From NCBI GenBank assembly GCA_017409025.1, contig JAFQTN010000001.1, positions 71,088-135,087 on the forward strand: DNA of 64,000 nt, given 5' to 3'. Of the stretch, positions 4,472-40,843 are shown in pieces; position 1 is the stretch's first letter, and every line of letters starts with the position of its first letter. The position numbers and the translations under genes are program-made. This stretch comes from Bacilli bacterium. GTDB lineage: Bacteria; Bacillota_I; Bacilli_A; RF39; UBA660. The notes beneath the pieces are model-generated. The model ran no database searches. It was not told the origin of the DNA and was given only the letters and a program-made list of their open reading frames with translations.

Positions 4472-4502
4472 TAAATAGTATAACAATAAGGGAGTGTTTT
4501 TT

Positions 4503-5162
4503 ATGTCTGCAAATTTAGAAATAGAAAATAGTTTTAATAATATTTTTGGAGTTAAACACTATAATGTAAAAATAATTAAAAAGAAAGAAAATTTCTTTAA
4601 ATATGCAATTAGTGTTCTTTCATATGCATTATTTATTTGGCTACTATTAATAGGAGGTACATTACTACTATATGTAGCAGATATTAAAATAAGGGCAGCC
4701 AAAGGAGATTATTCGGCCCCAGTATTTAATGCTTATGTTGTACTATCTGGTAGTATGTTACCGGAAATTGCTGTAAAAGATATTGTAGTAACCAAAAAAG
4801 TACCTGCAGAAGAATTAGAAATAGGAGATATCATTACGTTTATTTCACCTGATACAAGATATGGAGGAATATCCATAACACATAGAATACTAGATAAAAA
4901 ATATGATGAATCTTTAGGAAGTTATACCTATAGAACAAAAGGTGACAATAATAATGTAGCGGATACTGCCTTAGTACCTAATACTAATATCTTAGGTAAA
5001 GTAATATTAAAAGTACCTAAATTAGGATATATACAAGACTTACTATCAAGCAAAGGCGGATTAATCATAATAGTATTAATACCATGTTTAGTAATCTTAT
5101 CTTATGATATTATGAAGATATTTAAAAATATTGGGAAAAAAACAAAACTAATAAAAGAGTAG
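4503..5162 (+). CDS. sipW: Signal peptidase I, SipW (archaeal/ER) type
   Basis: N-terminal TM helix, SGSMLPEI catalytic-Ser box, ITHRI, TKGDNN, and a C-terminal TM helix. ATG 4503 lies 8 nt after GGGAG. Confidence 0.8.
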   Translation: MSANLEIENSFNNIFGVKHYNVKIIKKKENFFKYAISVLSYALFIWLLLIGGTLLLYVADIKIRAAKGDYSAPVFNAYVVLSGSMLPEIAVKDIVVTKKVPAEELEIGDIITFISPDTRYGGISITHRILDKKYDESLGSYTYRTKGDNNNVADTALVPNTNILGKVILKVPKLGYIQDLLSSKGGLIIIVLIPCLVILSYDIMKIFKNIGKKTKLIKE

Positions 5163-5172
5163 GATGATCTTT

Positions 5173-6837
5173 ATGTCAAAGAAAAAATTAGAGGTTGTAG
5201 AATTAAACAAAAAAGAAGAAAAAATAATTCTCGAAGAAAAACTTAATCCATGGAATTTGTTTTGGAAAAAATACGGACAATTAGTATATTTAACATCATT
5301 AATTCTATCAATAACTATATTAATAATAAGTTTATTTATATTTGTCTCTAATTTGTTCTCATCTGATCATCCAACTATTAAAGAAGTATCAATTGATGTC
5401 GATATAAATTCATCAAGTGTAACATTAGATTCACAATCAGCACTTACTGATGAAACAGCTACAAATACTTTTAACAATAATAGTATCTTCAAAAGTAACG
5501 GTGAAGTATTAGAAGTAAAAACTATTGAAGAAGATTTGTATATTCTTAAATTTTATAGTGATTTTACCGTTATAAAAATAATGAAAAATCAAAATATTGT
5601 TACCAGAATCAATTCCCTAGATGAATATACTTATGGAATAGATGAAAATGGTGTTTTAAATAGTAAAGCAATAATATCAGATACATCAATTATTAGTACT
5701 AAAAATTATCCTTGGGGAAAAGTTAATTTTTATAAAGATGGTTCAGCAGAAATATTTGATTCTAAAATTAATCTCTTTGTTAGAAATTCTAAAGATATAG
5801 AAAAAAATTATATTTCTAATAATAAAGTAAGTTATCTAAAAGAAACTAAAGACATTAATAATATAAAATTAAATTATTATTATGATGGAACTATTGAAGT
5901 AATCAAAGATAATAAAAGTTATTTAGTAAGAAACGAAAATGACTTAGATATAAAAAGTAACAATGTAACATTTAAAAACAACAATGAATCTACTATAAGA
6001 AAAACAATAAACTTATCAGATGGATGCAAAATAGATTATTATACCGATGGTGGAGCAATAATAACTGATGGAGAAAATACAATAAGTGTTAGAAAAAGTA
6101 ATAGTATTATAATAAAAGATAATAAAATATATGAAATTGTTGATAATATATATGTAGAAGTAAGTAATACTAAGGATAATGGAAATGTTACTTACTACAC
6201 TAATGGTGGAGCTGTTATAAAAGATTATAATGGAAAAACATTATATACTCCTGAAAACAGTTATATAAAATATAAAAAAGATAATAGAATATCAAATGTT
6301 ACACATAGTTATGAAAAATTAACAGAACAAAGAACAATAGAAAAGGACAAAATAACAAAATTTGAAACTGTTGCAGTAGTAGAAACAGAAAAATTCATAG
6401 CAATAGTACCAAAAGATAATATTTTATATGATAGTGATGGTTCGCTAAAAGAAATATTAGTAAATGAAATAGAAAATACTGGCAATCCAATAATCATAGA
6501 AAATAATACTAATGAGTTAATTAATTATAGAGTAGTTATTGAAAAGTCAAGTAGAACTAATTTAGATATAGAATATATTAAATATCAATTATCTGTAGGA
6601 GATACTTACATAAGTCCTACAAGATTAGACTCAAAGATATGGAAATATGATAATTTAGCTGATGGACTATCTATAACTGGTACAAACTATATACTACTAG
6701 ATAAAGAATTAGAACCACACGCTAAAGATGAAATAAAATTAATGTTGTGGACAGATTATGAAAAAATTCCAAATTCAATGCAAGATAAATACTTTTATGG
6801 AACAATAAAAGTATATGCATGGAAAGATTTAAAATAA
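5173..6837 (+). CDS. Membrane-anchored repeat protein with C-terminal TasA-like beta-sandwich domain
   Basis: TM helix at about aa 40-65. At least four repeats of Y(Y/K).(D/N)G(G/S/T)A.I.D. The C-terminus IENNTNELINYRVVIEK...IKLMLWTDYEKIPNSMQDKYFYGTIKVYAWK parallels the N-domain of the next protein. Confidence 0.5.
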   Translation: MSKKKLEVVELNKKEEKIILEEKLNPWNLFWKKYGQLVYLTSLILSITILIISLFIFVSNLFSSDHPTIKEVSIDVDINSSSVTLDSQSALTDETATNTFNNNSIFKSNGEVLEVKTIEEDLYILKFYSDFTVIKIMKNQNIVTRINSLDEYTYGIDENGVLNSKAIISDTSIISTKNYPWGKVNFYKDGSAEIFDSKINLFVRNSKDIEKNYISNNKVSYLKETKDINNIKLNYYYDGTIEVIKDNKSYLVRNENDLDIKSNNVTFKNNNESTIRKTINLSDGCKIDYYTDGGAIITDGENTISVRKSNSIIIKDNKIYEIVDNIYVEVSNTKDNGNVTYYTNGGAVIKDYNGKTLYTPENSYIKYKKDNRISNVTHSYEKLTEQRTIEKDKITKFETVAVVETEKFIAIVPKDNILYDSDGSLKEILVNEIENTGNPIIIENNTNELINYRVVIEKSSRTNLDIEYIKYQLSVGDTYISPTRLDSKIWKYDNLADGLSITGTNYILLDKELEPHAKDEIKLMLWTDYEKIPNSMQDKYFYGTIKVYAWKDLK

Positions 6838-6863
6838 ATATATAAGAATAAGAGGTGATACTT

Positions 6864-9140
6864 ATGATAGATTTTGTAAAAGCAAAAAGACATTATATTA
6901 TGGCATTAGCTATAATGTTTGTTGTCGTATCATTAAGTGGAACCACTTATTCTCTTTTCTTTAATGTAGACTCAACAGATAATTTTACTTATAATACTGG
7001 TATTCTAGACTTACAATTTGTTGAAGATGAACAAATAAATATTCAAAATGCTTTTCCAATAATAGATAGTGAAGGCTTAAATTCAACACCATATACACTT
7101 ACTATAAAAAATACTGGTTCTCTACCATATCTATTTGATATAAAAATGTTATCTACAACAGAAGATAATGTTATAGATATGAAATATATTAAAATTCAAG
7201 TAAATAATGATGATGCAGCAACTTTATATGAAAAAAGTAACATTATTGCTTCAAATATAATATTATATCCAGAAGAAGAAAAAACATTTAAAGTAAAAGT
7301 ATGGTTAGATATTAATACTCCAAATGCAGAATTAGGAAAAACATTTATGGCTAAACTTGTAACTAGTGGAGAGGCAATATATAAAACTCTAGATACAAGC
7401 GGAGCTAATCACCCAGATTTAACAGATGATATGATTCCAGTATATTATGATGAAACCACAAAAGAGTGGAAGAAAGCAGACCATAGTAATACAATTAATA
7501 CATATGAATGGTATAACTATGATAATGGAAAATGGGCAAATGTTGTAACAATTAAAAGTGGAAATAAAAAAATATATGATATAACAAGAAATAATAATTT
7601 AAATATAACAGAAACAAGAAACAATAATGGCAATTATATAAGTGATGAATCATCACTAGATATCGGATTATCTAATTATAATTATAATAATATAAGTAAT
7701 ATCTTTAGAATAAAATTTAATGATTTAAACGAAGATAACACATATATTATCTCAAATGGTAAAATAAGTTATTATTACAATAATAAAACAAACAAATTTA
7801 CATTAAAAGTAGGAAATAACACCGTAGAATCTTCTACATATCAACTAGAAGTTGGTAAATGGTATATATTAGGTTATACATACGATACTAATAAAGTATC
7901 ATTCTATATAGACGGAAAAAATATATCTACAAAAAACATATCAGGAAGTATTTATTCAAATAATAGTTTTAAAATAGCTACAGATAATGATCAAACTATA
8001 ATATCAAATCTTGAAGTTGGAGATATCTACATATATAAAAATATTTTAACTGAAGAAAATATAAATAATAATTATAAAAATGAAATAAATATAATTTACA
8101 ATAATCTAGTAGCTGGTTACAATGATTTTGAACCTAAAACACTAAGTGAATATTATGATGGAGAAGACTTTGGTTCAACCATTTTACTAGATGATATTAA
8201 CTCATTCTATGTATGGATACCTAGATATAAATATAAATTGTGGAATGTAACAGGTACCCCAGGAATCGATTCTTATGATGCATATAATAAGGGAATAGAC
8301 ATAATATTTGAAAATAACCAAGAAACATCTGGAGTAATAAAATGTCAAAATAATATTTGTTATAGCGATAATTTATTAATAACAAAAGTAACCAATAATG
8401 ATAATGGAAAATATTATACTCATCCAGCATTTACTACCGAAGAGAAAGAATTAACAGGAATATGGGTAAGTAAATATGAAACATCCACAAGTAGTAAAGA
8501 TTGCAACAGTGAGTCTACATCTGGTTGTCTATCGAATAATCTACAAATAGAATCTAAACCAAATAATACTGCATGGAGAAATAATTACTTATCATATTTT
8601 TATCAAAATATTAAGAAATTTGATACTAATGATAACAATTATAGTGTGATAAAAAATACTGAATGGGGAGCATTAAGCTATTTAACTCATTCTAAATATG
8701 GATTATGTCAAAATAATAAATGCGAGAATATTGGTACAAATAAAACATATATATCAGGCACAGAAATTAAAGATTCAACAACAAATAACATGTATGGTAT
8801 TTTTGACTTAAGTGGTAGTGCCACTGAATTTGTAATGGCTAATTATGCAGATGAATTTAATAATTTAACACTAAATGAGAGTCATTTTGGAAGTACACCA
8901 ATTATCAATAATGACTACGATTTATATCAAAAGAATACTTTTATACTTGGAGATGCTACTAAAGAAATATCACTAAAAGAAGGTATATGGTATAATAATT
9001 ATGCATCTTTTGTAAATGAAACTAATAATTGGTTCATAAGAGGTGGAATAGGTGTAACTGAAAATAATGGAATATTCTACTATAATGGAACGACAGATAC
9101 TAATAGCGAATATATAACAACAAGAATAGTAATAAAATAA
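6864..9140 (+). CDS. SipW-signal TasA-like domain fused to LamG-like and FGE-sulfatase/C-type-lectin-like domains
   Basis: N-terminus ..VVSLSGTTYSLFFNVDSTDNFTYNTGILDLQF..TLTIKNTGSLPYLFDIKM parallels TasA GGGTWAAFNDIKSKDATFASGTLDL..FENNGSLAIKEV. The middle region GKWYILGYTYDTNKVSFYIDG looks LamG-like. The C-terminus has GIWVSKYETS..YGIFDLSGSATEFV..FIRGG. Confidence 0.6.
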   Translation: MIDFVKAKRHYIMALAIMFVVVSLSGTTYSLFFNVDSTDNFTYNTGILDLQFVEDEQINIQNAFPIIDSEGLNSTPYTLTIKNTGSLPYLFDIKMLSTTEDNVIDMKYIKIQVNNDDAATLYEKSNIIASNIILYPEEEKTFKVKVWLDINTPNAELGKTFMAKLVTSGEAIYKTLDTSGANHPDLTDDMIPVYYDETTKEWKKADHSNTINTYEWYNYDNGKWANVVTIKSGNKKIYDITRNNNLNITETRNNNGNYISDESSLDIGLSNYNYNNISNIFRIKFNDLNEDNTYIISNGKISYYYNNKTNKFTLKVGNNTVESSTYQLEVGKWYILGYTYDTNKVSFYIDGKNISTKNISGSIYSNNSFKIATDNDQTIISNLEVGDIYIYKNILTEENINNNYKNEINIIYNNLVAGYNDFEPKTLSEYYDGEDFGSTILLDDINSFYVWIPRYKYKLWNVTGTPGIDSYDAYNKGIDIIFENNQETSGVIKCQNNICYSDNLLITKVTNNDNGKYYTHPAFTTEEKELTGIWVSKYETSTSSKDCNSESTSGCLSNNLQIESKPNNTAWRNNYLSYFYQNIKKFDTNDNNYSVIKNTEWGALSYLTHSKYGLCQNNKCENIGTNKTYISGTEIKDSTTNNMYGIFDLSGSATEFVMANYADEFNNLTLNESHFGSTPIINNDYDLYQKNTFILGDATKEISLKEGIWYNNYASFVNETNNWFIRGGIGVTENNGIFYYNGTTDTNSEYITTRIVIK

Positions 9141-32507: not shown

Positions 32508-33113
32508 TTGGACAAGAAAAAATTAATAGGAACAATTATAGGAGTAACTTTATTTGTGGTGCTAGTAGCAGGTGCGACATTCGCGTGGTTAACATTTAGT
32601 GCAACAATAACAAATGGAAATTATGTTTATCAAACAAAAAATTTCGTAATTAACTATGAAAGAGGAGATCAAAGTTTAGGAGGAAATCTTCCAAGTTTGA
32701 CAACCGCTACAGCAGCTACTGCCACAGAAACAGTAGTATCAGCTTTTAGAGATGCAGGAACACCAAATGGTATATTATATCTAAAAGTAACTAGTAGCGA
32801 TAGCAACATAACTAAAGGTGGGGCTGTTAGATACGCAGTATGTAGTGGAACAGAAAGCGAATCAGATTGTACAGGTAATTTATTATCCGGAGAAACAGGA
32901 GTATTATCTACTGGTTCAATAACAAATGTAGGAGAAACAATAATGTATCAAACTGCAGATCCAGATTTAAATGAAGCTGGAGAAGGTGTTGGTATTCCAA
33001 CAGTAAAAACATATTATTGGATATATTTTTGGATGAACCCTTCAAATTTAACAAATGCAATGATTTCTGAAACATACGAAGGTTATGTACATGCATCAGC
33101 AGAACAAAGATAG
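32508..33113 (+). CDS. SipW-type signal peptide protein, TasA/camelysin-like (paralog 1)
   Basis: N-terminus MDKKKLIGTIIGVTLFVVLVAGATFAWLTF. C-terminus TYYWIYFWMNPSNLTNAMISETYEGYVHASAEQ (compare TasA ..NKYQGNSIKLQFSFEATQ). TTG start after AGGAGGAG. Confidence 0.55.
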   Translation: MDKKKLIGTIIGVTLFVVLVAGATFAWLTFSATITNGNYVYQTKNFVINYERGDQSLGGNLPSLTTATAATATETVVSAFRDAGTPNGILYLKVTSSDSNITKGGAVRYAVCSGTESESDCTGNLLSGETGVLSTGSITNVGETIMYQTADPDLNEAGEGVGIPTVKTYYWIYFWMNPSNLTNAMISETYEGYVHASAEQR

Positions 33114-33372
33114 TATTAAATAAATCTTAATAATATCAAAAAAGTAAATTATTATTTAAGAATTTAGAAAGAGTAATTTACTACAAAAATTAATAAATTT
33201 TAAAATATCTTAAAGATAATAATTTCAAATTTTTCTTAACAATAATAAGTTAATGAATTGATAAAAAGTTAAGGCAACACAGTTTGAATATTATATATAA
33301 GAATTTTAAAATTTTTTTATTAACATAAAATATAATGTAAAAATAATTAAAAAGAAAGAAATGATATATACT

Positions 33373-34107
33373 ATGAAAAAACAAAAAAAAGTAACAATAG
33401 CTAATGTTTTTCTTATTGTAGCAATATTTCTAATAATAGGTGGCGGAACATTTGCGTTTTGGACATGGGTAAACCCAGAAGAAGAAAAGACGAATATAAT
33501 ATTTAAAACACCAGGCATAGAAGAAATGAAAAGTAAATTGTATGCTAATTTAGAGGGCTCTGGGAATATGGAAGTTACAGATTTGAAACCATCATTATGT
33601 AACGGGGATAATGCCATAAAAAAAACAATAGTAATTAATTACTTAAATCAAACAAAACAAACTGCAACAGTATCTGCAACGTTAGAAGTACCAAGTGAGT
33701 TATTTATTTTACCAGTAAAAGAAATAACTGAAAACAACGAATTGACAGAACAAATATTGATTCCAACGCAAGAAAATTTACAAGAATTAAAATTTGCATT
33801 AACAACAGAGTCTACTTCATGTGATGATGGCATCGTTACAGATATTGATGGCAACGAAATTAAAGGAAATTTCTCGCAGTTAGTATTTGATACTCAGACA
33901 AAAAAAAATGAACAACTTACATTGTTTACTCATAATTTTACAGCACCATCTAATATGTCGGTAGAAGATACAAAGATATATTATTTATGGATATGGTTAG
34001 ATTTAGACTATACTCACACAAATATAGGAAATAGAAACGACGATCCAATGCAAGGAATAAGATTTATAACCCAATGGTCAGGAGAAATAGCACAAAATAA
34101 TACATAA
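33373..34107 (+). CDS. SipW-type signal peptide protein, TasA/camelysin-like (paralog 2)
   Basis: N-terminus MKKQKKVTIANVFLIVAIFLIIGGGTFAFWTW (TasA has GGGTWAAF). C-terminus IYYLWIWLDLDYTHTNIGNRNDDPMQGIRFITQWSGEIAQ. An alternative ATG lies at 33361. Confidence 0.6.
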   Translation: MKKQKKVTIANVFLIVAIFLIIGGGTFAFWTWVNPEEEKTNIIFKTPGIEEMKSKLYANLEGSGNMEVTDLKPSLCNGDNAIKKTIVINYLNQTKQTATVSATLEVPSELFILPVKEITENNELTEQILIPTQENLQELKFALTTESTSCDDGIVTDIDGNEIKGNFSQLVFDTQTKKNEQLTLFTHNFTAPSNMSVEDTKIYYLWIWLDLDYTHTNIGNRNDDPMQGIRFITQWSGEIAQNNT

Positions 34108-34159
34108 TAAAAAGAGTTATAATGAAGTTATCTATATGATTTCTTCAAATTAACTCTTT

Positions 34160-34573
34160 TTATATAAAAAAGTTTGGATAATTAGTATTTGATATATCAT
34201 TATTTTTTTCTGTTTCTTGATTATTAAATGTAGCATTTTCAGTATGGTCATATTTATTGCTACTTGCTATTAAATTATTATTTTTCCTATTAGCAGAATT
34301 ACTAGTAGTCTCACTACCAAAAACTTTTGCAATTTTTAACATGCTTTTCATATTGTTAATCATAGGTCCTGCTTGCCTAACAAGCGGAATAGTTTGATTT
34401 ACTACATTTAGTGTTTTATTAGCACCATTTAACAAACCACTCCAATTAAAAGTTCGTAATGCATTACTAATTTTGCCAAACAAACCAAAATTTCTAGTAG
34501 GTAAGTAACTAGCTCTTATCATAGGTGTCATATTACTAACCATTCTAGGTACAAAAAATATTCCTGGATTCAT
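34160..34573 (-). CDS. VrrA/YqfQ-family protein
   Basis: GLLNGANKTLNVVNQTIPLVRQAGPMINNMKSMLKIAKVF parallels YqfQ ..TQKVLNTAQQIGPMVQQYGPLVRN.PAMWKLY. ATG 34573 follows GGAAGGGA. Confidence 0.5.
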   Translation of the reverse strand: MNPGIFFVPRMVSNMTPMIRASYLPTRNFGLFGKISNALRTFNWSGLLNGANKTLNVVNQTIPLVRQAGPMINNMKSMLKIAKVFGSETTSNSANRKNNNLIASSNKYDHTENATFNNQETEKNNDISNTNYPNFFI

Positions 34574-34681
34574 AAAATATCCCTTCCTAAAATAATATAT
34601 GTAAATAATCAAAAAAAGTTTAAAAAAAAAAACATTTATGATACAATTATATTAGTAAAATAAAAAGGTGGCGATTAAATA

Positions 34682-36019
34682 ATGAATAATAATCAAAATA
34701 TAAATAATTTTAATCAATCTAATAATAATCAAATGATAAATAATCAGCCAGTAAAAAAGACTGTTAAAACAAATGATGAAAATCAGAATGAAAAACCTAA
34801 ATTAAAAAGATTTAAATACAAAGTTAAAGATCAATCAGGTCAAATAATAGAGAGTTATTTTGATGCTGAAACTCAATTAGATGTTCAATCATTCTTACTA
34901 AATAAAGGATATGAAGTAATGTCAATTACAGAAGACAAATTATCCACAAGTTTAGGTTTAACTTTAATGTCAACATCAAAAAAGATGTCATCTAAAGATT
35001 TAAACTTCTTTTTAACACAATTATCTACATATATAAAATCAGGTATTCCTTTAGTAGAGTCTATGGAAATATTAAGTAGACAAGCAAAAAGTAAATCGCT
35101 TCAAATGTTATATAGAAAAATAGTATTTGAATTAAATAAAGGAACCACTTTTAGCATTTGTCTTGAAAAACAAGGAAAGGTTTTTCCTAAAATGCTAATA
35201 AATATGTTGAAAACATCAGAAATGACCGGTGATTTAACAGGAGTTTTAGACGACATGGCAGCATACTATAAAAGACAAGATAGTAATAGAAAAGAAATTA
35301 TAAATGCCATGACATATCCATCGGTATTATTGATATTTGCAGTAGCAGTTTTAACATTCATTATAACATATGTGGTACCATCATTTACTGATATGTATGA
35401 TTCTGCTGGAGCCTCACTTCCTAAAATTACCCAAGTTATTATGAATATCAGTGATTTTGTTATTCAAAACTGGTACTACATACTATTAGTGATAATAGTT
35501 ATTGCGGTAATTCTAAGTTTATTATACAAAGGATTAAAATCAGCTAAATACATGATGCAATCTTTTGTAATGCATATTCCAGTAGTAAGCGACATTATAA
35601 AATATAATCAATTAGTAACCTTTACTAGTACATTTTCAACATTAATAAAACATGATGTATTTATAACTGATAGTATGGATATTTTAAGCAGAATAACTGA
35701 AAATGAAATCTATAAAAAAATAATAGATGATTCTATAAAGAATTTAAGTAAAGGAAACGGAGTATCCGTAGCATTTAAAGGTCATTGGGCATTTCCTGCT
35801 ACGGCATATGAAATGTTAGTAACTGGAGAAAAAACAGGAAGACTTGGAGAAATGATGGAACATGTTGCGGCGTACTACCAAGAGGAACAAAGTAACTTAG
35901 TTTCTAGAATGAAAAGTTTAATAGAACCAATCATGATTGTTATGTTAGCAGTTATAGCTGGTGTCATTTTATTGGCAGTAGTAGTTCCTATGTTTGATAT
36001 TTATAGTACAATAATATAA
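34682..36019 (+). CDS. Type II secretion / type IV pilus platform protein (PilC/GspF/ComGB family)
   Basis: Two T2SSF repeats (LSTYIKSGIPLVESMEIL.. and FSTLIKHDVFITDSMDIL..) with 3 TM helices. There is an Asn/Gln-rich N-terminal extension. Confidence 0.85.
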   Translation: MNNNQNINNFNQSNNNQMINNQPVKKTVKTNDENQNEKPKLKRFKYKVKDQSGQIIESYFDAETQLDVQSFLLNKGYEVMSITEDKLSTSLGLTLMSTSKKMSSKDLNFFLTQLSTYIKSGIPLVESMEILSRQAKSKSLQMLYRKIVFELNKGTTFSICLEKQGKVFPKMLINMLKTSEMTGDLTGVLDDMAAYYKRQDSNRKEIINAMTYPSVLLIFAVAVLTFIITYVVPSFTDMYDSAGASLPKITQVIMNISDFVIQNWYYILLVIIVIAVILSLLYKGLKSAKYMMQSFVMHIPVVSDIIKYNQLVTFTSTFSTLIKHDVFITDSMDILSRITENEIYKKIIDDSIKNLSKGNGVSVAFKGHWAFPATAYEMLVTGEKTGRLGEMMEHVAAYYQEEQSNLVSRMKSLIEPIMIVMLAVIAGVILLAVVVPMFDIYSTII

Positions 36020-36030
36020 AGGAGTTAACT

Positions 36031-36795
36031 ATGGAGAAGTTATATTTAATTATATTTTTTATTTTTGGAAGTATAATGGGTTCTTTTTACCATGTCATAG
36101 CCACTAGATTATCTAATGGGTTATCAATAGTTAAACCCGCTTCTCATTGTGAAAAATGTAAACATCAATTAAAATGGTATGAATTAATACCGATAATATC
36201 ATATCTAATGCAATTTGGAAAATGTAGAAAGTGTAAAACAAAATTACCATTAAGTTATTTTTTGATAGAATTATGCACAGGAATTTTATTTGCAGTTTGT
36301 TATCATGTATTTGATACCCCACTAGAAATTGCAATATCTATAATATTTGTATCAAGTTTAGTAATCATAATAATAAGTGATATAGAGTATATGATAATTT
36401 TAGATGAAGTATTAATTGTGGCTATATTATCGATAATAGTTTTGGACATTATAGATATAGGTCTATATCAAACATCAATTAAAATATTGTATGGAGCAGG
36501 CTCATTTATTACCATGTTATTAATAAAAAAATTAGGTGATATAATATTTAAACAGGAATCTTTAGGTGGTGGGGACATTAAGTTAATGTTTCTAATTGGA
36601 TTAGTCATTGGATATGAAATGGCAATTTGCAATATTTTCTTTGCTACATTCATTGCATTTCCAATAGCATTATTTCTATTAATATCAAAGAAAGATAACA
36701 TAATTCCCTTCGGACCATTCTTAAGTATGTCTGCAATAATTTTATACATATGGGGTATTAATTTTACAGATATAATAAACTTTATAATATCATAA
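36031..36795 (+). CDS. Prepilin peptidase (A24 family; PilD/ComC-like)
   Basis: N-terminal CEKC..CRKC zinc motif and GGGDIKLM catalytic-Asp box; polytopic. Confidence 0.85.
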   Translation: MEKLYLIIFFIFGSIMGSFYHVIATRLSNGLSIVKPASHCEKCKHQLKWYELIPIISYLMQFGKCRKCKTKLPLSYFLIELCTGILFAVCYHVFDTPLEIAISIIFVSSLVIIIISDIEYMIILDEVLIVAILSIIVLDIIDIGLYQTSIKILYGAGSFITMLLIKKLGDIIFKQESLGGGDIKLMFLIGLVIGYEMAICNIFFATFIAFPIALFLLISKKDNIIPFGPFLSMSAIILYIWGINFTDIINFIIS

Positions 36796-36821
36796 TAGTT
36801 CAAATTTTGAACTATTTTTTC
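36796..36821 (+). terminator. Terminator after the pilC-pilD pair
   Basis: TAGTTCAAA / TTTGAACTA stem followed by T6. Confidence 0.7.
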
Positions 36822-36900
36822 TATGTAAAAAACAATTTAAAAACTTGATTAGCACGTATAATTATGTTATTATTGATATAGAATAAGAAAGAGGATCAAT

Positions 36901-37377
36901 ATGAGTAAGAATAAAATAATAATAGTCTTATTAATAATGTTATCAATTGGTATTGTTTCATTGTATACAACATTTGGTTATGAAGAAGTAAATACAGTTA
37001 AAGAACAATCTAATTCTGATTATAAATTAATATATTCTCTAAAAGAAGAATTTAATAAAGAAATTGTACTAAATGCCAATGAGGAAAAATTTATTGATAT
37101 AACACTTAAAAATACGTATGAAAATACAATAAAATATGGTATGTACTATTATTTAATAAATCCTACTAGTCTGCCAGATAATGTAGAAATAACATTAGCG
37201 GAAGGCTCTGAAAACTCATTAGAAGATGTAATAAAACCACAAGAAACAAAAACAGTATCAATAAGAATTACAAATAATTCTGAATATACTATCAACCTAA
37301 TTGTTGGTGCACTAATTGGTTATGAACGCGGTAATGTAGAAGAGTTAATAACAGATGGAGAAGTTTTAATAAAATAA
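36901..37377 (+). CDS. Small secreted/anchored protein, probable TasA-like family member (paralog 3, divergent)
   Basis: N-terminus MSKNKIIIVLLIMLSIGIVSLYTTFGYEE. Beta-rich body ..FIDITLKNTYENTIKY..TKTVSIRITNNSEYTINLIVGA. It ends 13 nt before gap. Confidence 0.4.
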   Translation: MSKNKIIIVLLIMLSIGIVSLYTTFGYEEVNTVKEQSNSDYKLIYSLKEEFNKEIVLNANEEKFIDITLKNTYENTIKYGMYYYLINPTSLPDNVEITLAEGSENSLEDVIKPQETKTVSIRITNNSEYTINLIVGALIGYERGNVEELITDGEVLIK

Positions 37378-37390
37378 GAAGGAGAATAAA

Positions 37391-38383
37391 ATGAAAAGAA
37401 TAGCAATTAATGGATTTGGAAGAATAGGAAGATTAGTTTTTAGAATTATTGATGCAAGAGATGATATGGAAGTAATAGCTATAAATGATCTATCATCAGC
37501 AGAAGAACTAGCATACTTATTAAAGTACGATACTAATCATAGAAGATATACTGAAAATGTAGAATTCGACGAAGAAAATATTATAGTAAATGGTAAAAAA
37601 ATAAGGGTATACAAGGAATTAGAACCTGCTAATTTACCATGGAAAGAGTTAGAAATAGATACTGTTTTAGAATGCACAGGCAAATTTACTAGTAAAGAAA
37701 AAGCTATAGCACACATTGAAGCAGGATCTAAAAAGGTATTAATATCAGCACCAGGGAAAGGTGAAATGAAAACAATAGTATATAATGTAAATGATGAAAT
37801 ACTAACAGAGAAAGATACTATTGTGTCGGCAGCATCATGTACAACAAACTGCCTAGCACCAGTATTAAAAGTGTTAGATGCTAATTTTAAAGTAATAAAA
37901 GGAAATATGACAACAATTCATGCTTATACTAATGACCAAGTAACTTTAGATGTGACACATAAAAAAGGTATATTAGAAAGAAGAGGAAGAGCCTGCGCAA
38001 TGAACATGGTGCCAACATCAACTGGAGCAGCTAAGGCAATTGGAAAAGTTTTACCTACATTAGAAGGAAAAATTTTAGGAAGTTCTATAAGAGTTCCCGT
38101 ATCAGATGGATCACTTATTGATCTAGTTGTAGAACTAAAGAAAAAAGTTACAAAAGAAGAAATAAATAAAAAATTTAAAGAAAACGTTAATGAAACATTA
38201 AATTATACTGAAGACCCAATTGTATCATCAGACATTATATCTTCAACCTATGGAGCAACAGTAGATGGTAATTTAACAAATGTAATTGAAGTAAATAAAC
38301 ATCAATTAGTTCATATAGTAGCATGGTACGATAATGAAATGGGATATTCTTGTCAAATGGTAAGAACACTAGCAAAAATGTAA
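37391..38383 (+). CDS. gap: Type I glyceraldehyde-3-phosphate dehydrogenase
   Basis: INGFGRIGR, ASCTTNCLAP and WYDNEMGYS. Confidence 0.95.
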   Translation: MKRIAINGFGRIGRLVFRIIDARDDMEVIAINDLSSAEELAYLLKYDTNHRRYTENVEFDEENIIVNGKKIRVYKELEPANLPWKELEIDTVLECTGKFTSKEKAIAHIEAGSKKVLISAPGKGEMKTIVYNVNDEILTEKDTIVSAASCTTNCLAPVLKVLDANFKVIKGNMTTIHAYTNDQVTLDVTHKKGILERRGRACAMNMVPTSTGAAKAIGKVLPTLEGKILGSSIRVPVSDGSLIDLVVELKKKVTKEEINKKFKENVNETLNYTEDPIVSSDIISSTYGATVDGNLTNVIEVNKHQLVHIVAWYDNEMGYSCQMVRTLAKM

Positions 38384-38385
38384 CA

Positions 38386-38440
38386 AAGAGCAAAAGCTCT
38401 TTTTCTTTTAAACAAAAAGCTCTTTTTCTTTTAAAATATA
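38386..38440 (+). terminator. Terminator after gap, with tandemly duplicated 3' arm
   Basis: AGAGCAAAAGCTCTTTTTCTTTTA, then AAACAAAAAGCTCTTTTTCTTTTA. The first 24 nt are identical to 56216-56239. Confidence 0.6.
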
Positions 38441-38505
38441 ATATTGATATTATTTAAAACTTATGTTATTATTATAATAGGTAAAAATATAGGTAAGGTG
38501 ATAGC

Positions 38506-39075
38506 ATGGATTTTAAAAAACTAATAATAATTTTAAGTGTCACAGTATCTATAATGTTTGGAGTTCTACTAGGAATAAGTTATGGTTGGTATGCTTATTC
38601 AAATGCAGAATCAAATATAAATGCAAGCACATTAAAAACTGCACCAACAATAGTTTTTGCTCAAACAGAATATATTGAATCAACCCAAAATATGCCAATA
38701 TATGATAGTGATAGATATAAATACGCGAACAAAAATAGCTTTACAGTAACATTAGGAGAAAATCTAATTGAGTATGAAACCGGATTAGAAATTCTATTAA
38801 ATGATATAAACATTTCAAATGAACTTAAAATAGAAAATTATAAATATGAATTACTACAAAACAAAAAGATAATAAGTAGTGGAAATTTTAGTAATCTAGG
38901 TGATATTAAAACAATAAAATTATTACCAATGACAATTATGAAACCTGAAAATTATCCATATACATATGTATATGAACTATATATTTGGTTAAGCGAAGAT
39001 GAAACAGACCAAAATAGTCTAATGAATAAAACTTTTGGTGCAAAGATAGATGTAAATAGTGCAACAAAAAAATAG
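38506..39075 (+). CDS. SipW-type signal peptide protein, TasA/camelysin-like (paralog 4)
   Basis: N-terminus MDFKKLIIILSVTVSIMFGVLLGISYGWYAYSNAE. C-terminus YVYELYIWLSEDETDQNSLMNKTFGAKIDVNSA. Confidence 0.5.
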   Translation: MDFKKLIIILSVTVSIMFGVLLGISYGWYAYSNAESNINASTLKTAPTIVFAQTEYIESTQNMPIYDSDRYKYANKNSFTVTLGENLIEYETGLEILLNDINISNELKIENYKYELLQNKKIISSGNFSNLGDIKTIKLLPMTIMKPENYPYTYVYELYIWLSEDETDQNSLMNKTFGAKIDVNSATKK

Positions 39076-39090
39076 AAAGAAGGCAGTAAA

Positions 39091-39663
39091 GTGAAAAAAA
39101 CAATAGTGTATATTATGATTGCTTTTTTATTGGCAATTACAGTAGTTGGTGTAACTTATGCTTATTATGGTGTAATAATTAATCCAAAAGAAGATTCACT
39201 CACAACAAATGCCCACAAATTTGAAGTTATTTATACTGGCGGCACAGATATTGGGGGAGAATTAGAATTAGTAAATACTAAAGAGGAAGGTAAAAATACC
39301 ACTGTAAATATCAAAATTGCTGAAGGTAGTGTTGAAGCACTAGCAAATATATATATTCATATAGACCAAATGACAGACAATCTAGCATCAAATGCATTAA
39401 GATGGGAAGTTTATAGAAATAATGAAGAACAAAATATCAAAGCCGGAAATTTTATGTATTGTGTGTCAGGAAATATCAAAAAGAAATGTGAAAGTGGAGA
39501 CAAATTATATCTTATAAATGATTATAAATTAACAACTGATGATACCTCTTTTACAGTATATATATGGTTAGATGGAAATTTGGCAACAAATGATATACTA
39601 GGTGGATTTTTTCAAGGATATATTGGAGCAGAAACAGAAACCTTTACCGGTAATTTAGGATAA
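39091..39663 (+). CDS. SipW-type signal peptide protein, TasA/camelysin-like (paralog 5)
   Basis: N-terminus MKKTIVYIMIAFLLAITVVGVTYAYYGVI. C-terminus SFTVYIWLDGNLATNDILGGFFQGYIGAETE. GTG start after GAAGG. Confidence 0.55.
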   Translation: MKKTIVYIMIAFLLAITVVGVTYAYYGVIINPKEDSLTTNAHKFEVIYTGGTDIGGELELVNTKEEGKNTTVNIKIAEGSVEALANIYIHIDQMTDNLASNALRWEVYRNNEEQNIKAGNFMYCVSGNIKKKCESGDKLYLINDYKLTTDDTSFTVYIWLDGNLATNDILGGFFQGYIGAETETFTGNLG

Positions 39664-39718
39664 CTCATAAAGAGTTATTTTTTTTGTCTAAAAAAATATA
39701 ATGTAATAGGTGATAATA

Positions 39719-40843
39719 ATGAAAATAATAATTGATCCTTATCGTGGAGGAAGTGATACTGGAAAAGAAATAGACGGACAATATGAAAAAAATATTCTTT
39801 TAAATATATCAAAATATATGTCAGAAAAATTTAATAACTTAGGTATAACCAACGAATTAGTAAGAAATAATGATATATCATTAACAGATGAGGAAAGAAC
39901 TAGTATTATCAACGAAATAAAAGATAAAAATGATATAGTTATACAAAATAGATTGTCCGATGATAATGAATTTGATATCATTTATCCACTTAGAAACAGC
40001 GATTCACTTCCTAGCCTTATATCAACTTCATTGGAAGCAAGAGGAATAAACGTAGATAAATACTATCAAAGAAGATTACCCACAAATACTACATTGGATT
40101 ATTATTCAGTAATTAGAAATACAAATCCTAATGAAGTTTTAATCATTGAATATTTAGATCCTACAAACTATCAAAATACGGTAGATATTATCGTAGATAG
40201 TATTGATAAGTATATTAAAAAAAGTAACACATATATAGTAAAAAAAGGAGACTCGCTGTATCAAATAGCTATAAAATATAATACAACTGTAGAAAAATTA
40301 AAGAAATTAAATAATATAACAAGTAATTCACTAAGTATTGGTCAAGTATTAAAAATTCCTGTTGGAGAAACAGAAAGTATAGAAGAAAATTCATATACAG
40401 TTCAAAAAGGAGATTCGTTATATCAAATAGCTATAAAATATAATACAAGCGTAGACGAATTAAAAAAGATAAATAATTTATCAAGTAATATTCTAAGTAT
40501 AGGGCAAAAACTAATACTTCCAACAAAAAAAGAAGAATCAACAGAATATGACTATTATACAGTACAAAAAGGAGATTCATTATATCAAATATCAAAAAAA
40601 TATAATATAACTGTAGATGAATTAAAAAAATTAAATAATATAACAAGTAATTTACTAAGCATAGGAGAAAAGTTAAAAGTACCCAAAACAGAGCTAGGAT
40701 ATATAATGTATACAGTACAAAAAGGAGATTCATTATATCAAATATCAAAAAAATATAACGTAACAGTTAACGACATAAAAAGTTTAAACAATATAACAAG
40801 TAATGTATTAAGTATTGGTCAAGAACTAAAAATACCTAGGTGA
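39719..40843 (+). CDS. Amidase_3-like domain (degenerate metal site) + four LysM repeats
   Basis: IDPYRGGSD / IVIQNRLS / VLIIEYLDPTN replace DPGHGG / SIHxNA / ALIEVGF. There are four copies of Y.V.KGDSLYQI..KYN..V..LK..NN..SN.LSIGQ.L.(I/V)P. Confidence 0.7.
   Translation: MKIIIDPYRGGSDTGKEIDGQYEKNILLNISKYMSEKFNNLGITNELVRNNDISLTDEERTSIINEIKDKNDIVIQNRLSDDNEFDIIYPLRNSDSLPSLISTSLEARGINVDKYYQRRLPTNTTLDYYSVIRNTNPNEVLIIEYLDPTNYQNTVDIIVDSIDKYIKKSNTYIVKKGDSLYQIAIKYNTTVEKLKKLNNITSNSLSIGQVLKIPVGETESIEENSYTVQKGDSLYQIAIKYNTSVDELKKINNLSSNILSIGQKLILPTKKEESTEYDYYTVQKGDSLYQISKKYNITVDELKKLNNITSNLLSIGEKLKVPKTELGYIMYTVQKGDSLYQISKKYNVTVNDIKSLNNITSNVLSIGQELKIPR

Follow-up and report, generated by a model that had tools for sequence, protein, structure and literature searches.

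We analyzed a 64 kb stretch of DNA (hereafter the window; G+C content ~25%) on contig JAFQTN010000001.1 of a Bacilli bacterium, in which five small proteins with signal-like N-termini lie around the genes of a PilC-type platform protein and a PilD-type prepilin peptidase. A preliminary description of this DNA had read the five as SipW-dependent, TasA-like paralogs that make up a candidate multi-subunit surface-fibre system together with the PilC-PilD pair. All five open reading frames (ORFs) are present on the plus strand: protein A (32508-33113, TTG start), protein B (33373-34107, with an alternative ORF start at 33361), protein C (36901-37377), protein D (38506-39075) and protein E (39091-39663, GTG start), the last of which served as the reference for profile searches and structure modelling. 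The pair in the middle of the run was recovered by domain models: the PilC/GspF-type protein (34682-36019, plus strand) matches T2SSF in two stretches (E-value 9.2e-51) and GspF over model positions 1-401 (7.8e-83), and the A24 prepilin peptidase (36031-36795, plus strand) matches A24_N_bact (5.5e-31) and Peptidase_A24 (6.4e-11). Upstream in the window, the gene of a SipW-type (endoplasmic reticulum/archaeal-type) signal peptidase I (4494-5162) is directly followed by two large ORFs on the same plus strand, G1 (5164-6837; 557 amino acids, membrane-anchored) and G2 (6855-9140; 761 amino acids).

The five ORFs were previously called a cluster. The ORFs are real, but the run is broken by a YqfQ-like gene on the opposite strand (34160-34612; Pfam YqfQ, 1.8e-9), which lies outside the family, and by a housekeeping gene for glyceraldehyde-3-phosphate dehydrogenase (GAPDH; 37391-38383, plus strand; Gp_dh_N and Gp_dh_C were matched on its orthologs). 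Spacing and consensus scans suggest at least three plus-strand transcription units, namely A-B, PilC-PilD-C-GAPDH, and D-E. A terminator-like hairpin was located 3' of GAPDH (38385-38402) and a promoter-like site 5' of D (38444-38472), both in consensus scans.

To compare the five proteins, orthologs were taken from syntenic loci, and the resulting profiles were aligned by hhalign with and without the signal region. The probability for A and E was 99.3% over the full length and 98.0% with the signal removed, and the corresponding values were 98.6% and 96.8% for D and E, 97.0% and 83.8% for B and D, and 97.8% and 58.5% for B and E. The N-terminal domain of G2 (~175 residues) scored 98.3% against B, 96.4% against E and 95.0% against D. 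On the strength of these profiles, A, B, D, E and the G2 N-terminal domain are one family; a chance cluster was considered and ruled out by the profile statistics. Protein C reached <20% against A, B, D and E at full length and <1% with signals trimmed, so that its homology to them is undetectable. Thus, true paralogy holds for four of the five proposed members, A, B, D and E, which have diverged greatly from each other, whereas C shows no relationship by hhalign.

The N-terminal strings that had been singled out in the five proteins are all present, and each is conserved inside its own ortholog set. The C-terminal motif [YF]x[IVL][YW][IFL]W[LM][DSN]..N..G..[IV]..A was found, as described, in four of the five (A, B, D and E), and it also closes the N-terminal domain of G2. 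In G2, the family module occupies residues ~1-175 (6855-7379) and is followed by a Laminin_G_3/ConA-like lectin domain (residues 277-403; Laminin_G_3, 3.7e-9), beyond which the protein continues with another region up to its C-terminus. That the two giant proteins next to sipW share the C-terminus of the family, as had been claimed, therefore stands for G2, where the motif ends the N-terminal domain, but not for G1, which gave hhalign probabilities of 0.1-12.5% against A-E and has no Pfam or NCBIfam match; the C-terminal strand pair of G1 aligns in register with the family motif, without significance.

Protein C appears to be a different kind of product. Its N-terminus is signal-like (SLYTTFG↓Y) and is followed by a disordered linker and a small immunoglobulin (Ig)-like beta-sandwich. 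The AlphaFold2 model of C, built from a 30-sequence alignment, has a mean predicted local distance difference test (pLDDT) score of 72.4 and the same predicted layout as E with a smaller sandwich, and its Foldseek matches were generic GOLD/MSP/PapD-like folds only. A total of 234 homologs of C were found, with identities to the query of 61-100% among the 120 listed, and its conservation is comparable to that of PilC and PilD. C would thus be a small Ig-like protein of a kind of its own, either secreted or anchored. It begins ~105 bp past PilD and ends 13 bp before GAPDH. The GAPDH gene seems to be persistently linked to genes of secreted proteins, given the position of C here and that the same gene lies between tuf and D-E in three other loci (L009-L011).

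The signal peptides follow a common plan. Every ortholog set keeps a basic head, a hydrophobic core of 17-19 residues, the motif T/S-[FYW]-[AG] and then an aromatic residue. This geometry equals that of the verified TasA cleavage site, GGGTWA↓A; mature TasA starts at A28, directly past GGGTWA, as checked against PDB entries 8AUR and 5OF1. The SipW-cognate signal model TIGR04088 was matched at E<1 by 22 of the 33 E orthologs, with 2.7e-4 as the best value, and orthologs of A and B scored E 0.003-0.005 (an A ortholog at 0.003), or 17.0-17.7 bits with a cut-off of 19. An assignment of the signals to the SipW-cognate class is hence supported at motif level. The earlier claim of SipW-cognate signals holds as far as the motif and the SipW-type gene in the window are concerned, while the scores stay under the curated threshold.

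The peptidase upstream was identified as described: it matches TIGR02228 at 3.5e-29 (101.7 bits, cut-off 51.85) and the Bacillus SipW equivalog NF046067 at 2.7e-26, under the cut-off of the latter, and its SGSMLP and THR boxes are readable in the sequence. A family member, G2, lies downstream of it with G1 in between, and this peptidase is presumed to be the processing enzyme of the family. The predicted mature N-terminus of G2 (window 6855-7000) reads DNFTYNTGILDLQF, near the TasA/CalY consensus N.FAAGTLDL. G2 also weakly matches the Mollicutes 'DxFTY motif-containing membrane protein' model NF046003 (E 0.12), and its N-terminal domain gave an hhalign probability of 6% against TasA.

We then consider the mature domain. 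The AlphaFold2 model of E, based on an alignment of its 33 orthologs (mean pLDDT 81.8), predicts a helix at residues 2-24, a disordered segment at 26-40 and an 11-strand beta-sandwich at 46-182. The disordered segment follows the putative cleavage site, a position compatible with a donor strand, although not diagnostic of one. The full-length E family aligns with a 28-sequence TasA/CalY reference alignment at 85% probability (E 5.8e-6), confined to columns 1-85 and including the signal. Pfam scanning of the five window proteins gave no match at E<=1. The Peptidase_M73 model (PF12389) picked up four of the 33 E orthologs, with no significant membership (best E 0.012), and two A-like proteins of another locus (L015) scored 18.4 and 16.2 bits against its cut-off of 22.5, the best stretches being residues 5-58 and 9-78, which is the signal end. 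Similarly, the BsaA model TIGR04090 matched six of the 33 orthologs (best 1.6e-4), at 21.5 bits compared with a cut-off of 60 and over profile positions 4-42 of 241 only; in general, BsaA and TapA model matches cover mainly the signal region and fall far under the cut-offs. The E-family profile found nothing at E<=10 among PDB sequences, and Foldseek of the E model found no PDB match at E<=0.001. The archaeal TasA-like bundling pilin AbpA (7ueg_A) stood at rank 6 of the Foldseek matches, with a probability of 0.99, an E-value of 7.3e-3, a template modelling (TM) score of 0.32-0.34 and 13% identity. TasA and AbpA are themselves so far apart that it takes profile or structural comparisons of the highest sensitivity to relate them (PMC9245690).

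Despite having no Pfam or NCBIfam model, the family is large. Protein E has 43 homologs, among them a 100% identical hypothetical protein from a metagenome-assembled "Bacilli bacterium". An exhaustive search with the E-family profile, counted as cluster representatives at 50% identity, recovered 1019 representatives at E<=1e-3, of which 312 remain at the stricter threshold of 1e-10. The relatives come from human gut and other metagenome assemblies labelled as uncultured Bacilli, Clostridiales or Clostridium sp. CAG:302, and the family would consist of proteins that uncultured gut Bacilli secrete or carry on their surface. A literature search for it in Erysipelotrichia, Coprobacillaceae or Mollicutes returned nothing relevant. 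Many members are 400-1845 amino acids long and carry the module at the extreme N-terminus, and seven of nine sampled long members have recognisable C-terminal domains (Flg_new repeats, Gly_rich_2, Big_13 or DUF285). From this arrangement, the module appears to serve surface proteins generally as an N-terminal unit for export, attachment or polymerisation. One B ortholog, from a more distant relative (L008:4304-5296), has ~90 extra C-terminal residues with a Dockerin_1 domain (1.6e-5), which suggests attachment to a cohesin-bearing scaffold.

Members of the family also diverge rapidly. Between the window and a syntenic relative (L003), identities were 44% for A, 33% for B, 44% for E, 55% for C and 63% for D, compared with 77% for PilC, 78% for PilD, 82% for GAPDH and 90% for SigA. 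The fast divergence of A, B and E would be as expected for exposed proteins. Depending on the locus, there are 0 to 3 gene copies at the A/B site, and one locus (L014) has five tandem A-like genes; the paralog loci appear to be hot spots of family-member gain and loss. In two loci (L001:4646-9262 and L006:1833-3689), large proteins of 618-1031 amino acids with a B-like module at the N-terminus are inserted in the paralog run, and the insert in L001 adjoins a Bro-N-like gene.

The PilC-PilD pair looks intact. The prepilin peptidase is apparently intact, with its CxxC...CxxC and GGGDIK motifs, and PilC has an Asn/Gln-rich low-complexity N-terminal extension of ~40 residues (window 34682-34810), which varies in length and is present in all clade orthologs. 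As had been noted before, the window lacks a secretion ATPase and a canonical prepilin: no T2SS-E-type ATPase and no G↓FTLxE prepilin were found anywhere in the 64 kb, and a six-frame translation of the window gave no N-terminal match to the class III prepilin signal. There is no evident PilD substrate in the window. For comparison across relatives, 76 loci (864 kb) were tabulated by family hidden Markov models and BLAST. Scanning of these 864 kb for the Walker A motif GxTGSGK[ST] found none in any clade locus, and neither an ATPase nor a prepilin lies within 8-10 kb of PilC in any of them. Moreover, neither Gly nor Ala separates the basic head from the helix in B, C, D and E, whereas A has a Gly there, and Glu at +5 is missing from all five. 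By these features the five are not class III prepilins, and B, C, D and E are not PilD substrates. Because the pair is well conserved and intact-looking, it presumably serves a pilus or competence machine encoded elsewhere in the genome. Both comEA and comEC are within the window.

The conservation of gene order changes with PilC identity. At a PilC identity of at least 60%, every sufficiently long locus reads [0-3 A/B]-yqfQ(-)-PilC-PilD-C-GAPDH-D-E. Within this clade, all genes from gpsA to sigA are collinear in L003-L007, the loci with the best sampling, and most flanking genes are collinear in the other loci. Adjacency of the paralogs to PilC-PilD here says little on function because the surrounding genes are collinear too. 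At a PilC identity of 55% (L041-L043), no family member lies within 8 kb, and at 44% (L052) a single gene resembling the G2 N-terminal domain is found on the far side of lepA, at a distance of 2.7 kb. Canonical operons, in which PilC is accompanied by PilB, PilT, pilins and PilMNO, occur only at 31% or less. Conversely, D-E follow rpsL-rpsG-fusA-tuf-GAPDH without PilC in L009-L011, and Clostridium sp. CAG:302 and relatives have two paralog clusters without PilC, one of them directly 3' of an F1-like ATPase cluster. The neighbourhood is therefore conserved in gene order in many relatives, but this is lost at 55% PilC identity, and clusters exist elsewhere without PilC. The proposal of one multi-subunit system that includes PilC-PilD finds no support in this comparison: the genes are spread over at least three transcription units, housekeeping genes are interspersed, and the adjacency is confined to the clade with at least 60% PilC identity.

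Three tandem A-like paralogs with SipW-type signals come directly after the F1-like ATPase cluster (L015:65-6758 in Clostridium sp. CAG:302 and L013:69-4575 in a related metagenome-assembled genome). The cluster departs from the canonical atp operon in its gene order, which is alpha-like, beta-like, a 175-residue protein, gamma-like (PF00231, 1.8e-21) and a 278-residue protein, and it is reminiscent of the extra F1-like ATPase clusters of Mollicutes.

Taken together, we consider it reasonably probable that the window encodes members of a large, unannotated family of SipW-class secreted beta-sandwich proteins, probably subunits for fibres or surface display, and that the orphan PilC-PilD pair next to them is unrelated. 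The precursors of A, B, D, E and G2 would have Sec signal peptides of the SipW-cognate type. On export, the SipW-type peptidase at 4494-5162 would cleave them behind T-[FYW]-[AG]. The mature form would comprise a flexible N-terminal segment of ~15-20 residues and a beta-sandwich of ~140 residues, ending in the conserved W-[LM]-[DSN]...G...A strand pair. On the model of TasA, BsaA and AbpA, this segment would most likely be a donor strand, which would link modules into homo- or heteropolymeric surface fibres, and large members with lectin, Ig-like, Flg_new, DUF285 or dockerin domains would be inserted through the same module. The interleaving with PilC-PilD would be a clade-specific gene order rather than a shared machine, with the ATPase and pilins located elsewhere. 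It is the surface location, the cleavage and the donor-strand polymerisation that we infer in this scheme.

Several results weigh against it. Neither sequence nor profile comparison relates the mature domains significantly to TasA, BsaA or TapA, and each of A-E gave an hhalign probability of <1% against the TasA profile once signals were trimmed. The top Foldseek matches of the E model are generic carbohydrate-binding module (CBM)/jelly-roll folds with TM scores of ~0.3, and TasA is outside the top 50. In view of these values and the best Peptidase_M73 hit given above, the label "TasA-like" is not supported; what the fold comparison leaves is a predicted beta-sandwich with the weak AbpA match, but none to TasA at comparable rank. 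In addition, the segment after the putative cleavage site shows little conservation among E-family members, an uncommon trait in a donor strand. The window copies themselves are below the TIGR04088 cut-off, B being the sole match at E 0.15, and it is from the motif that we infer processing by the SipW-type peptidase. Finally, the PilC-PilD adjacency is perfectly conserved across dozens of clade contigs, and a functional connection between such systems has been published for Clostridium perfringens (PMC11580942).

Part of this evidence would suit another picture, in which the signals are never cut: the helix stays in the membrane, and the sandwich is a membrane-proximal stalk that tethers small proteins and adhesin-like fusions without forming fibres. 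The N-terminal position of the module in many large multidomain surface proteins, the low TIGR04088 scores of the window copies and the disordered, variable, tether-like linker past the helix are all in keeping with such anchors, and BsaA oligomers have themselves been reported to be membrane-anchored (PMC11580942). We nevertheless regard this explanation as unlikely, given that an invariant T-[FYW]-[AG]-aromatic motif after the 17-19-residue core equals the proven TasA site and that a dedicated SipW-type peptidase is encoded with a family member downstream. Reading the five as atypical type IV (pseudo)pilins cut by PilD, like the five ComGC-GG pilins, would account for the presence of five small proteins with N-terminal hydrophobic helices beside PilC and PilD, and the A family does have a conserved KKLIG↓TIIGV N-terminus. 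But the residues missing before the helix in B, C, D and E and the absence of Glu at +5 from all five speak against it, as do the conserved motif past the helix and not before it, the globular part modelled as an all-beta sandwich instead of an alpha-beta pilin fold, and the occurrence of the module in contexts without PilD. The prepilin reading is highly improbable and was rejected on these sequence features.

A role of PilC-PilD in the export of the neighbouring proteins deserves separate consideration. PilC-PilD, with an unlinked ATPase and pilin, might act as a type II-secretion-like piston that assists export or assembly of the SipW-processed proteins or of C. The conserved order from the A/B site to D-E includes loci whose upstream genes differ (L037, L039 and L048), C follows closely on PilD and is as conserved as the pair, and the locus with 44% PilC identity keeps one family member at a distance. 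Furthermore, a SipW-like gene (L067:9513-10256), 37% identical to that of the window (E 1.9e-20), lies directly past a PilD-PilC-PilMNO-pilin cluster whose PilC is 29% identical. In C. perfringens, PilA3, PilB2, PilC1, PilD and PilMNO are needed for efficient secretion of BsaC, which is encoded in the sipW-bsaA-bsaB-bsaC operon, and several pilus genes also affect the secretion of BsaA oligomers (Kivimaki et al., PMC11580942). This precedent makes a functional link conceivable here, while the concept is not new; the author of the preliminary description was aware of no system combining an expanded TasA-type family with type IV pilus-like parts, a statement that the published link overtakes. 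Weighed with the lack of an ATPase or prepilin within 8-10 kb in any clade locus, the collinearity of most or all other genes (complete from gpsA to sigA in L003-L007), the loss of adjacency at 55% identity, the clusters next to tuf-GAPDH or the F1-like ATPase genes in L009-L015 and the split into separate transcription units, pilus-assisted export seems quite improbable. The stronger form of the idea, in which PilC-PilD and the co-transcribed C have been recruited into a hybrid of a TasA-type fibre and a reduced type IV pilus platform for SipW-processed subunits, is very doubtful. A spore-appendage or sporulation-specific role was also considered, in view of the nearby yqfQ, yutH and sigE genes and of the TasA alias spore coat-associated protein N, and was not adopted.

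The region is ordinary chromosome, with spoIIGA-sigE, comEA, comEC, gpsA, yutD, yqfQ, gap, queA, dnaG, sigA, trmK and topA. Downstream of E, a plus-strand gene (39710-40843) encodes an Amidase_3-like domain (3.1e-9) with four LysM repeats (1.9e-64 in four stretches). Active members of the Amidase_3 family usually have DPGHGG, the His of which is a Zn ligand. The N-terminus of this protein has IIDPYRGG instead, a substitution that recurs in orthologs (such as in L039), so the remark that it is a pseudo-amidase looks right and the protein is probably catalytically inactive.

If the proposed mechanism of processing and donor-strand assembly is right, uncultured gut and rumen Bacilli would have a major, unnoticed way of building surface fibres and displaying adhesin, lectin and dockerin domains, and the SipW/TasA-type donor-strand principle would reach well beyond Bacillus and Clostridium. 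The fast divergence and the copy-number changes suggest that the proteins are under pressure from host or phage. A practical lesson for annotating genomes is that a SipW-class signal can be recognisable although the mature domain is past the reach of TasA models, and that pilC-pilD adjacency inside a collinear clade should not be taken for a functional system.

Four known systems come closest to the locus. With type IV pili, the Com pseudopilus and type II secretion it shares an adjacent full-length PilC/GspF protein and an intact-looking A24 peptidase; it differs from them in that no assembly ATPase, PilM/N/O or class III prepilin is found in the window or within 8-10 kb in the clade. With the tapA-sipW-tasA operon of B. 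subtilis (PF12389), the common features are the signal class at motif level, with T-aromatic-small and then an aromatic residue, a dedicated SipW-type gene with family members downstream, and the predicted succession of signal, flexible N-terminal segment and beta-sandwich. A C-terminal strand resembling N..G..x-h-x-h-A-[ET]-[QE] also falls in the same register as in TasA, in an alignment that is not significant. In contrast to B. subtilis, the mature domain has no significant similarity to TasA, which is outside the top 50 Foldseek matches, the window paralogs are mostly far from sipW and scattered among housekeeping genes, and the family module is often fused to large C-terminal surface domains.

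AbpA (7UEG; PMC9245690) is the best fibre-forming structural match to the E model. It is a jelly-roll protein processed by signal peptidase I, with an N-terminal donor strand, and its relation to TasA, too, shows up only when sensitive methods are used. With E 7e-3, TM 0.32-0.34 and 13% identity, it is a weak match, and AbpA differs in being archaeal, with no dedicated SipW and no large adhesin fusions. In C. perfringens, the described tie of the sipW-bsaA-bsaB-bsaC system to PilA, PilB, PilC, PilD and PilMNO is functional and genetic, and the pilus genes are complete and located elsewhere, whereas the window holds PilC and PilD only and the link is positional. The BsaA/TasA family has been described as comprising ~2,172 proteins of great divergence, several of which are often encoded as paralogs in one operon, and as assembling by donor-strand exchange (PMC11580942). 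It is this system (PMC11580942; PMC7395162) that the window family resembles in its highly divergent, TasA-superfamily-like and presumably SipW-dependent proteins, in the several paralogs per genome and in a proposed donor-strand mechanism.

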